A DNA stretch of 7,705 bases from the IMG/VR virus record IMGVR_UViG_2690316318_000009, positions 1-7,705 of that record; one strand, given 5' to 3'. Source of the DNA: a virus. Lineage: Duplodnaviria > Heunggongvirae > Uroviricota > Caudoviricetes. Position numbers: made by a program. Shown one piece after another: positions 3,001 through 6,000 of this stretch. The stretch's first letter is position 1, and each line of letters opens with the position of its first letter.

Positions 3001-6000
3001 CGCTCACGTCTGCTCAGTGGGATGCCGGACATTACCGGACAACTGCTGCGGCACCTCAACTCCGATTTGATGAACGCAATATTCACAAGCAATGCGTGGT
3101 GTGCAACCAGCACAAAAGCGGAAATCTCGTTCCGTATCGCGTCGAACTGATTAGCCGCATCGGGCAGGAAGCAGTAGAGGAAATCGAATCAAACCATAAC
3201 CGCTATCGCTGGACTGTCGAAGAGTGCAGGGCCATCAAGGCGGAGTATCAACAGAAACTTAAAAAACTGCGAAACAGCAGAAGTGAGGTTGCATGAATAT
3301 CTACGAAAGAATTGATGGCAGCAAATACCGAAATATTTGGGTAGTTGGTGACCTGCACGGATGCTACACGAACCTGATGAACAAACAGGATACGATTGGA
3401 TTCGACAACAAAAAAGACCTGCTTATCTCGGTGGGCGATTTGGTTGATCGCGGTACAGAGAACGTCGAATGCATGGAATTAATCACATTCCCCTGGTTCA
3501 GAGCTGTACGTGGAAACCATGAGCAAATGATGATTGATGGCTTATCAGAGCGTGGAAACGTCAATCACTGGCTGTTTAATGGCGGTGGCTGGTTCTTTAA
3601 TCTCGATTACGACAAAGAAATTCTGGCTAAAGCTCTTGCCCATAAAGCAGATGAACTTCCGTTAATCATTGAACTGGTGAGTAAAGGTAAAAAATATGTC
3701 ATCTGCCACGCCGATTATCCTTGTGACGAATACGAATTTGGAAAGCCAGTTGATCATCAGCAGGTAATCTGGAACCGCGAACGAATCAGCAACTCACAAG
3801 ACGGGGTCGCGAAAGAAATCAAAGGCGCGGACACGTTCATCTTTGGTCATACGCCAGCAGTGAAACCACTCAAATTTGCCAACCAGATGTATATCGATAC
3901 TGGCGCAGTGTTCTGCGGAAACCTCACATTGATTCAGGTACAGGGAGAAGGCGCATGAGACTCGAAAGCGTAGCTAAATTTCATTCGCCAAAAAGCCCGA
4001 TGATGAGCGACTCACTACTGGCCACAGTTTATTGGTTTTCGTAACTGAGTCATTTTATTATTTTATTGCAACTTTTAATCTTTTATAGTGCGAAATAAAT
4101 GGAGCTAGCATTCATTTCGCACTTTATGTTTTTGTTGGACTTATGTTATTTTGATTGAATTCAATTCAGTTAAAAAAAGAAGGTGATTGCTCCATTTATA
4201 AATGAATAGTCATCCCCTGTCTTGAATTCTGATGTTACTTTATTAAATGCTAGTGTGAAGGCTACAGGTGCATACCCAATTGTTGCGCCAACTTGATATT
4301 CATCAACAGTTTTGTTTAGCGATACTGTTGTTTGTTTCGTCTGTATTGTTTTTCCTTCGAGAGTATAGTTGCGATTGACATCTCGTCTTTCCATACCTGC
4401 AAAAATCTTGTATTTGAATCCGCTTGTATCGGACATATGCATTAAACCACGGGGAGCCAGCAGACCAAAGCCATTATCCGAATTGAAGGTTTTATCATTA
4501 CCAATGGCAATGGTTGCGCCATATGCTACATATTGAAATAAGTTTCCAGTAACAGCAGAAACTTCAGGGTATAATCCAACATTAGCACCTAAAATATCCA
4601 TACTTGGTGTCATGGATAGCATCCCTTTTACAGTATAACCGTAGCGATTCTCTATTTGATCATCCCATGCATGATATTTTTCTGCCCCAATAATCTCATG
4701 AGCTTTATTTTGTACTTTCTGACCGCCTGCGTCGGGGCCAACAACACCTATGTCAGTACCTAATCGATAGCGAATCCAGTCATTCGCAAGGGAGTTCCAT
4801 TCAATACCAGTGTGAGTGTATGCACTAAAAGCTCTGTCTCCAGTTACAGCTGTGTTGTGTCTTTTATTACTGCCTGATGGAGAGTAAATATCTTGCGCAA
4901 TATGGAGAGATAATTGGCTCGAGTCTGAGATATCGTGGCTATATCCCAGAAATAAGCCTTGTGAGTAATCATCTCTGTTTTCATGTTTATTGCCATAAAT
5001 ATCATTAAGTATTGGTTGAAACTTCCCTGCATCATCATTTGCTAATGATAATGCAAGGCTGTTCGCGATAGCTGAACACGTGGTAAATGACAGAGCAATA
5101 AAGACGCCAGCGATGACACTTTTTTTCATATGTTATTGTCTTCCTTTTTTTGAATGGTGCGCGCATTTTACATACGTGAGTTTGTAATACAAGGTGCGTA
5201 ATCAATATGATGTTTTATAATTGCGTGAGACAATTGATTTATTTGTTTTTTTATTGTGGTTTTTATTATCTTTTTAATGTAACGATGTTTTTATTAAGTG
5301 TGTTTGCGTGGTGTTTTATGTTTTTATAATTTTTATTTTATTAAATTTAAATGCATTAGTAATAGCTACTCTATATAGCAATATAAGAACTGTTACAAAA
5401 AAGGGGGGCAATTACAGGTAGTTATGGATGATGAGTGAAACAGATATTGGAGAACCGGGGAATGAATGATGTCTGAGTCTTATATATCAGAACTCCTTCG
5501 CTGTCGCAGGGGGCTCCTGTGCTTATGTCGTTTCCCCGATTCGGTTTTGAACGATTACCGAATGTTGAAGAATTATGCCAAAACACTGAAAGGGACAATC
5601 GTATGAAGCTGGGGATAACGATGGGTTTATACCCTTTTATTGATTTTTGCTGGCAATTGGTGTGCTGGGCTGATTTTGTGGAGAAAGTTGATGCGTGATA
5701 TTCAGATGGTTCTTGAGCGTTGGGGAGCATGGGCGGCTAATAACCATGAGGATGTGACCTGGTCGTCCATTGCTGCCGGTTTTAAGGGATTAATTCCTTC
5801 AAAAGTAAAATCTCGTCTGCAATGCTGTGACGATGACGCGATGATCATTTGTGGATGCATGGCTCGCCTGAAAAAGAATAACAGCGACCTGCACGATTTA
5901 TTGGTAGATTATTATGTTGGTGGTATGACATTTATGACGCTTGCGCGTAAGCATGGATGCTCTGATACATGTATAGGGAAACGTTTGCAAAAAGCTGAAG

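Follow-up and report, generated by a model that had tools for sequence, protein, structure and literature searches.

The stretch of DNA analysed here (the window, 7,705 nt of the Caudoviricetes record IMGVR_UViG_2690316318_000009) carries the lipid A deacylase gene lpxR between two groups of lambdoid phage genes. The genes, and the AT-rich region upstream of lpxR that is the subject of this analysis, are arranged as follows.

3955-4044, plus strand: lambda-type Q gene stub of 29 codons; its counterparts in O157, EPEC, O103, and phage 434 carry the label of a partial antitermination protein or of a Q N-terminal fragment
4170-5129, minus strand: lpxR, outer-membrane lipid A 3'-O-deacylase (Pfam PF09982, LpxR, E = 6.8e-40; about 39% G+C)
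5130-5465, no strand: intergenic, presumably regulatory region of the lpxR cassette, forming the upstream half of the cassette (28.9% G+C)
5466-5606, plus strand: ylcG, divergent from lpxR
5691-6074, plus strand: quuD-type late-gene antiterminator Q of 127 aa (Pfam PF06530, Phage_antitermQ, E = 5.6e-54)

The Pfam matches and the annotated relatives, in which lpxR is labelled as an LpxR family protein, bear out the lpxR, ylcG, and Q gene calls of the first-pass annotation. The match of lambda and its relatives to the window stops at 4025, and the end of lambda homology near this position marks the left junction of an lpxR cassette. On the other side, homology to the rusA-ylcG-quuD segment of the K-12 prophage DLP12 starts only at 5457 (the ylcG-Q DNA is 83% identical to DLP12 ylcG-quuD), and the entire stretch of 5130-5456 is part of the same cassette. 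Homology to the EHEC/EPEC cassette stops at 5593, within ylcG, the gene in which the annotation of phage 434B also places a recombination crossover. The borders delimit a putative lpxR "moron" cassette of about 4026-5456 within the nin-Q region of a lambdoid prophage resembling phage 434, located between the lambda Q stub and ylcG-Q. It adds an extra gene among conserved phage genes and is missing from lambda and DLP12 at the same site, which is the pattern of a horizontally acquired prophage cassette.

The order of Q stub, lpxR, intergenic region, and ylcG is common to O157, O103, EPEC, strain 14EC017, and phage 434. Of 5,426 complete E. coli genomes, 620 contain the intergenic region at full length, each in a single copy, with 95–97% identity to the window; the listed carriers include O157:H7, O103:H2, O111:H8, and EPEC O127:H6. 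The lpxR coding sequence has no difference from the O157:H7 copy. The window thus shares its locus with the EHEC/EPEC lpxR of the Ler-Pch regulon (ECs0814 / Z0955 / E2348C_0684; prophages Sp3 / CP-933K / PP2), but the E. coli copies examined are followed by a Q of 229 aa, whereas the window has the 127-aa quuD type. The same cassette is present in the nin-Q region of the free-living lambdoid phage 434 (OL657226 / OL657227), with 96–97% identity over window positions 1-5593 or 1-6061. Phage 434B gained a quuD-type Q by recombination with K-12 DLP12, but the Q of the window is only 83% identical to that of DLP12, indicating that the window is a natural variant and not 434B. Our literature search found no paper describing lpxR in phage 434.

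Lambdoid morons such as lambda bor and lom are extra genes with their own promoter and terminator, atypical base composition, and expression from the prophage. The lpxR cassette resembles them in its position between conserved phage genes, its composition, and its prophage expression, and it has a candidate promoter and a candidate terminator; it differs in being antisense to the pR operon and immediately upstream of the Q module, so that early rightward transcription must cross the cassette to reach Q. The signals found around lpxR are listed below.

4089-4123, both strands considered: strong hairpin just past the lpxR 3' end, a terminator candidate, followed on the plus strand by TTTATGTTTTTGTT
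5140-5145, minus strand: lpxR Shine-Dalgarno sequence AGGAAG, read from the sequence and separated by 10 nt from the start codon (ATG at 5129); phage 434 has an annotated ribosome-binding site at the corresponding position
5165-5192, minus strand: best candidate lpxR promoter, with -35 TTGTAT (5192-5187), a 16-nt spacer, and -10 TAAAAT (5170-5165); predicted start near 5158
5182-5211, plus strand: rightward promoter-like match, TTGTAA, 18-nt spacer, TATGAT (9 of 12 positions matching), back-to-back with the candidate lpxR promoter
5231-5345, no strand: T-tract core with eight T-runs of 4–7 bases (82% A+T over 5240-5345), about 90–180 bp upstream of the predicted lpxR start
5397-5408, no strand: A6G6 homopolymer pair, of strain-variable length (A6–8, G6–8) and shorter in L057 and L058, the two divergent alleles

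The candidate lpxR promoter gave the top minus-strand score in a weight-matrix scan, a consensus match only, and both of its hexamers are identical in L057 and L058, two alleles with 84–86% identity. The 3' hairpin folds with -16.4 kcal/mol (z = -2.7) on the plus strand and -19.1 kcal/mol (z = -5.9) on the minus strand, where it is without a U-run. The gene is thus accompanied by a conserved promoter-like site and a 3' hairpin, together with a clear drop in G+C. No intrinsic terminator was found within the intergenic region. The 10-bp high-affinity H-NS motif TCGATAAATT had a single match in the region, with two mismatches, and four matches in the window against 12 expected; matches to the IHF consensus were at or below chance.

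We also considered whether the region itself gives rise to a product, namely a Phe-rich protein of 40 aa, a small RNA, or a leader structure. An ATG-initiated ORF of 40 codons is present at 5207-5329, but its frame is not conserved, and its length ranges from 7 to 74 codons among the alleles through indels in the tracts. A 20-nt inverted match between 5131-5150 and 5397-5416 would in principle allow pairing with the lpxR ribosome-binding site; the minus-strand RNA, however, folds no better than its shuffles (z = 0.25), and the two homopolymer runs do not covary consistently in length. Rfam gave no match in the whole window at E ≤ 1. We rejected both candidates and regard a product of the region as extremely improbable.

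The extreme AT-richness that had been noted between lpxR and ylcG/Q was confirmed. Over the 336 bp of 5130-5465 the G+C content is 28.9%, compared to about 39% in lpxR and about 49% in the nin region, and it falls to 21.0% in 5201-5400, the minimum among the 200-bp steps profiled in the window. Such a stretch of several hundred bp far below the host average is what xenogeneic silencing generally acts on. The T-tracts listed in the first-pass annotation had to be amended in part: there are indeed eight T-runs of at least four bases between 5246 and 5339 (5246-5252, 5260-5264, 5271-5275, 5288-5292, 5314-5317, 5321-5325, 5330-5334, and 5336-5339), but the tract given at 5303 is only TTT, the one given at 5331 starts at 5330, and the one at 5336 had been missed. 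The segment 5240-5345 consists of 66 T, 21 A, 16 G, and 3 C (62% T), and this T-richness accounts for the count: mononucleotide shuffles contained 5.9 ± 1.3 T-runs, and 11% of them reached eight, a non-significant enrichment (p = 0.11).

Classical bent H-NS targets, such as the promoter bend of Shigella virF, contain phased A-tracts, as does kinetoplast-type bent DNA. The region resembles them in that several A/T-tracts precede a silenced virulence promoter, and the first-pass annotation had read the tracts as roughly helically spaced and as the signature of an intrinsic bend. If so, the phased tracts would form a strong, specific architectural signal for H-NS that sets the silencing of lpxR. 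The presence of eight T-tracts within 94 bp is in line with this idea, as are three adjacent start-to-start spacings of 10–11 bp in the earlier tract list and the persistence of the tracts (all eight in 33 near-identical alleles and seven or eight in the 84–86%-identical ones). The spacings between tract centres, however, are 13, 11, 17, 25.5, 7.5, 9, and 5.5 bp, with a phase coherence of R = 0.40 (n = 8) at a period of 10.5 bp. Across the three frames tested, 19–60% of the dinucleotide shuffles reached the observed power of TT or AA/TT periodicity in the 10–11.25 bp band. In addition, strain-to-strain changes of ±1 in tract length shift the phase. The helical spacing was thus not borne out.

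The curvature prediction that had been suggested as a check was carried out with four wedge or roll models, for which synthetic controls behaved as expected. The core (5230-5350) was predicted to curve by 11.3 degrees per turn, about 40% of the value for a phased A6 control (27.8; unphased, 5.7). This places the core in the top 1–2% of same-size fragments of the window, and locally the prediction rises to about 17 degrees per turn, at 5267, but 10–15% of the core's own dinucleotide shuffles equal it, and higher peaks occur at no fewer than five places in the window, mostly within genes. In L057 and L058 the predicted curvature falls to the level of shuffles even though the tracts are retained. 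The region therefore resembles phased A/T-tract DNA in the number of its tracts but not in helical phase or predicted curvature, and the claim of a signature bend is not supported. By these models the region is moderately curved through its T-richness and not through tract phasing, and we regard a phased architectural bend as quite improbable. The T-tracts would be a by-product of the extreme T-richness, probably giving moderately curved DNA with a narrow minor groove and no phased bend.

The claim that lpxR stays silent unless a counter-silencer acts agrees with published work on the same locus, its identity having been checked by comparison of the lpxR and intergenic sequences. In array experiments, Ler, an anti-silencer of the H-NS family, raised lpxR expression 21–35-fold in EPEC E2348/69 (E2348C_0684) and 5-fold in EHEC EDL933 (Z0955) (PMC3891560), and lpxR belongs to the LEE/Ler modulon (PMC9263587). 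Passages in PMC6393859 (citing Ogawa et al. 2018) and PMC7649339 state that lpxR needs both Pch and Ler. The expression of lpxR also drops, along with that of LEE genes, in yhaO and yhaJ mutants (PMC4699771). Pch and Ler act by relieving silencing by H-NS, StpA, Hha, and YdgT, and their binding regions are the lowest-G+C segments of H-NS patches (PMC4764244). The same study states generally, without naming lpxR, that virulence genes on phage elements of O157 Sakai are associated with H-NS; ECs0813-0815 were not found in the supplements of PMC4764244 and PMC4720273. The idea of silencing and counter-silencing is thus essentially already known for this locus, and the membership of lpxR in the Ler/Pch (anti-H-NS) regulon is published.

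Two known systems resemble this arrangement. The first comprises the LEE promoters and effector genes of prophages (nleA, for example), in which AT-rich, horizontally acquired DNA is likewise silenced by H-NS/StpA/Hha and Ler/Pch lift the silencing (PMC4764244); lpxR groups with these genes in the LEE modulon. Binding has been mapped biochemically at LEE1 and other LEE promoters, whereas lpxR is likened to them from expression data. In Salmonella, the homologous enzyme is encoded by an lpxR that is repressed by H-NS and activated by HilD (PMC5122947), again a combination of xenogeneic silencing and a virulence regulator as counter-silencer, but that gene is chromosomal and not in a prophage, and its counter-silencer differs from Ler/Pch.

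Taking these results together, we consider it probable that 5130-5465 is the upstream regulatory region of lpxR, that lpxR is a low-G+C, oppositely oriented moron with its own candidate promoter and terminator, and that it is subject to H-NS-type silencing relieved by Ler/Pch; the promoter position is a predicted one, and any effect on ylcG-Q is conjectural. We infer that H-NS occupies the exact site upstream of lpxR. The stretch of 21–29% G+C, the 39% G+C lpxR gene, and the AT-rich 3' flank would together form a patch of about 1.4 kb of the kind coated by H-NS/StpA/Hha, and lpxR, coated in this way, would stay silent in the lysogen. Where the host has the LEE, Ler together with Pch would bind the most AT-rich part and relieve the silencing, and lpxR would then be co-expressed with the type III secretion genes. 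The T-tract core is the likeliest zone of nucleation and anti-silencer binding. H-NS prefers flexible, TpA-rich AT DNA over rigid A-tracts, however, so nucleation may be favoured elsewhere than in the core; within the region, TpA is most frequent in 5346-5400. The host of the window may lack Ler and Pch, and the Q module of the window is unlike that of the cassette-carrying E. coli genomes examined. Because LpxR removes lipid A acyl chains and dampens TLR4 signalling, the point at which it is expressed is important to the immune evasion of EHEC and EPEC. The present analysis leaves the current understanding unchanged and mainly removes an over-interpretation. It adds that the classic phage 434 and the window share one lpxR control region, that 5130-5456 lies wholly within the lpxR cassette, that the T-tracts show no phased bend, and that the tract core outpaces lpxR in evolution.

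In lambdoid phages, Q is transcribed from pR through N antitermination. The first-pass annotation had proposed that the region might also affect the downstream Q and had assumed a second, rightward promoter there. One could imagine that ylcG-Q is driven in the prophage state by a rightward promoter, or by several spurious AT-rich promoters, and that the same nucleoprotein patch gates the leakiness of the late genes. The flanking genes are divergently oriented, and the match at 5182-5211 is the top plus-strand score of the weight-matrix scan, but promoter-like matches in 3900-6200 are at the chance level (6, compared to 7.1 ± 2.4 in shuffles), and the sole match therefore fails to substantiate a specific divergent promoter. 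The established route from pR also argues against the idea. The adjacent Q gene of EPEC (E2348C_0685) is activated 2-fold by Ler (PMC3891560), which is weakly consistent with an influence on Q, a 2-fold change on arrays being weak evidence. We consider rightward promoters driving ylcG-Q to be very improbable.

Comparison among the alleles showed that the T-tract core is a diversity hot spot and evolves much faster than the gene: 22 of 120 sites segregate in the core, compared to 6 of 960 in lpxR and 4 of 102 in the proximal part of the intergenic region. Most of the substitutions are C>T changes at the scarce G/C positions, and the homopolymers slip by ±1. A scan of the genome collection for distant lpxR upstream regions found one locus, Citrobacter L007, at 73% identity. 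At this locus and at L060/L061 (71%), the upstream DNA is AT-rich, with no similarity to the window and no tract array. These observations could mean that the T-rich core is a largely unconstrained spacer from a donor genome drifting toward A+T, and that lpxR is controlled within the roughly 100 bp beside the gene and by post-transcriptional steps: no part of the cassette varies more than the core, its changes are of the kind just described, composition explains the number of tracts, and distant lpxR loci do without the array. Against this, the tracts are kept in alleles whose cores have diverged by 16–22%, and Ler/Pch sites are typically the lowest-G+C segments, here the core (PMC4764244). 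Moreover, intergenic regions upstream of genes and bound by H-NS reportedly diverge faster while binding is kept (PMC4720273; the strains of that study were K-12, SE11, and SE15, with O157 not among them), and the fast evolution of the lpxR upstream region is consistent with this report. We consider the spacer explanation unlikely and prefer a silenced regulatory region.

A more far-reaching idea is that the core (5231-5345) and the A(n)G(n) run form a fast-evolving tuning module, in which C>T changes and ±1 slips readjust H-NS silencing of lpxR relative to its de-silencing by Ler/Pch across LEE-positive lineages, possibly also affecting the leakiness of Q. The 20-fold excess of diversity over the third-codon positions of lpxR would then come from selection or targeted hypermutability and not from drift. 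We regard this idea as speculative and distinctly unlikely. About 11 changes are private to the window's own allele of the intergenic region, and the majority of them either increase A+T or change the length of a tract.

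The window is lambdoid prophage DNA from the nin-Q region, in which the following features were assigned.

Features of the window (coordinates, strand, content)
upstream part of the window, + strand: P, ren, ninB, a DNA methylase gene, and ninG
3293–3958, + strand: NinI phosphatase gene
3955–4044, + strand: stub of a lambda-type Q gene (29 codons)
4170–5129, − strand: lpxR, lipid A 3'-O-deacylase gene (Pfam LpxR, E = 7e-40)
5130–5465: AT-rich intergenic region between lpxR and ylcG
5192–5165, − strand: candidate lpxR promoter (TTGTAT, 16-nt spacer, TAAAAT), a promoter-like sequence match
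5466–5606, + strand: ylcG
5691–6074, + strand: Q antiterminator (127 aa; Pfam E = 6e-54)

The closest annotated relatives of the window include phage 434 (96–97% identity) and the prophages of O157:H7, O55:H7, O103:H2, and EPEC O127:H6 (98.9% identical over 4000–5593). The homology to lambda stops at 4025, and that to the K-12 prophage DLP12 (rusA-ylcG-quuD) starts only at 5457, which led us to regard 4026–5456 as a single inserted cassette; these limits make the entire intergenic region a part of the lpxR unit. Judged from its sequence, the cassette appears to be a typical lambdoid moron. The full-length intergenic region was found in 620 of the 5,426 complete E. coli genomes, as a single copy in each and with 95–97% identity. 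The Q stub, whose start lies within the last bases of the NinI phosphatase gene, shows that the original Q was replaced by lpxR, ylcG, and a different Q through recombination inside the old Q. The homology to the EHEC/EPEC cassettes ends at 5593/5594, inside ylcG, and to the right of this point lies the quuD-like 127-aa Q (83% identity to K-12 DLP12), whereas the examined E. coli copies of the cassette are accompanied by a 229-aa Q. Since the record of phage 434B marks a crossover point in ylcG at nearly the same place, recombination seems to have joined sequences repeatedly within this gene. The window's combination of allele and Q module was shared, among the retrieved sequences, only by L036 (IMGVR_UViG_2695420514_000014), a 6.5-kb viral contig with 99.96% identity to 2036–7630. 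Two further sequences, L060 and L061, carry an lpxR homolog at 71% identity with a tRNA-gene-like stretch (GGTACGCCCTACAGGGCTCGAACCTGTGACC...) approximately 300–350 bp upstream, suggesting that in this phage lineage lpxR is located at the prophage end beside the attachment site, not in the nin-Q region.

The extreme AT-richness described in the first-pass annotation was confirmed: the G+C content is 28.9% in 5130–5465 and 21% in 5201–5400, the minimum among the 200-bp steps profiled across the window. The annotation had also listed T-tracts at roughly helical spacing as a signature of intrinsically bent DNA. The tracts are present, except that the one listed at 5303 is merely TTT; runs of at least four T start at 5246, 5260, 5271, 5288, 5314, 5321, 5330, and 5336. 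Their spacing is not helical, with gaps between tract centers of 13, 11, 17, 25.5, 7.5, 9, and 5.5 bp and a resultant vector of 0.40 at a 10.5-bp period (n = 8 tracts), and the power of TT or AA/TT at 10–11.25 bp was matched by 19–60% of dinucleotide-preserving shuffles. The number of tracts (8, versus 5.9 ± 1.3 in mononucleotide shuffles) is what a T composition of 62% yields. DNA paths were modeled with the Bolshoy–Trifonov, AA-wedge, De Santis, and Calladine parameter sets, and the controls (phased A6, unphased A6, and a kinetoplast-like sequence) behaved correctly. The predicted curvature of the core (5230–5350) averaged 11.3 degrees per turn, compared to 27.8 for phased and 5.7 for unphased control tracts. 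This value is in the top 1–2% of same-size fragments of the window, is equaled by 10–15% of the core's own dinucleotide shuffles, and is locally exceeded at several sites inside genes. The moderate curvature is thus attributable to T-richness rather than to phasing, and a specific phased bend as the signal for H-NS is disfavored by these models and by the periodicity tests against shuffles. The two halves of the core (5239–5273 and 5314–5348) align as a 35-nt direct repeat with 71% identity, which could be a trace of internal duplication or mere low-complexity similarity.

The interpretation in the annotation was supported in part: its bend premise was not, but the proposal that H-NS-type proteins silence lpxR and that a counter-silencer is needed is essentially known from publications on the same locus. 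Ler activates lpxR 21–35-fold in EPEC (E2348C_0684) and 5-fold in EHEC (Z0955) (PMC3891560), the LEE modulon includes lpxR (PMC9263587), and two reports describe both Pch and Ler as needed for lpxR (PMC6393859; PMC7649339). Ler and Pch relieve silencing by H-NS/StpA/Hha/YdgT. H-NS patches in O157 Sakai have a mean length of 1.6 kb, and the two regulators bind where the G+C content within a patch is lowest (PMC4764244). Salmonella lpxR is likewise repressed by H-NS and is activated by HilD (PMC5122947). In view of the published regulation, the best explanation is that xenogeneic silencing would cover the lpxR cassette, most likely nucleating in the 21–29% G+C region at 5130–5465, and that Ler and Pch would counter-silence it. 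We infer H-NS occupancy of this region; the canonical H-NS 10-mer showed no enrichment. The T-tract array is located approximately 90–180 bp upstream of the predicted lpxR start, and both hexamers of the candidate lpxR promoter are intact in the two most divergent alleles. The 2-fold activation by Ler of the late-gene regulator adjoining lpxR, E2348C_0685 (PMC3891560), an array effect on the adjacent Q, would agree with a rightward promoter within the region driving ylcG-Q, an unlikely reading whose other basis is a sequence match at chance level.

Among 55 near-identical cassettes, the T-tract core (5231–5345) is a diversity hot spot: 22 of 120 columns segregate, compared to 6 of 960 sites in lpxR (Fisher p = 3e-17) and 16 of 374 in the remaining non-coding sequence of the cassette (Fisher p = 4e-6), and nucleotide diversity is 0.0143 versus 0.0007 at lpxR third-codon positions. 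The window and O157 show zero differences in lpxR, but their intergenic regions differ by 2–2.7% and also in the lengths of homopolymers. The changes are mostly C>T at the scarce G/C positions plus ±1 homopolymer slips, among them slips in the run at 5397–5408. The hot spot fits the published generalization of faster divergence in upstream regions bound by H-NS (PMC4720273). It could equally be hypermutable low-complexity DNA, and an unconstrained spacer under pure drift is a possible reading as well. The homopolymer pair A6G6 at 5397–5408, approximately 60 bp upstream of ylcG, is length-polymorphic among strains (A6–8 G6–8) and could not be identified as the spacer of any promoter.

A product encoded by the region was rejected, since its 40-codon ORF is not conserved among alleles; the region had no match in Rfam and no significant RNA structure by folding. 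Between the lambda-Q stub and the lpxR 3' end lies a strong hairpin (4089–4123). Only on the + strand does a T-run come after it, and the hairpin hence resembles a terminator of rightward (pR-derived) transcription more than one of lpxR itself. Downstream of Q, an 83-aa ORF without a Pfam match (6139–6390, + strand; N-terminus signal-peptide-like by eye) and a 179-aa ORF (6887–7426, − strand) lie in DNA of low G+C content (36–44%) and may be further cargo genes.
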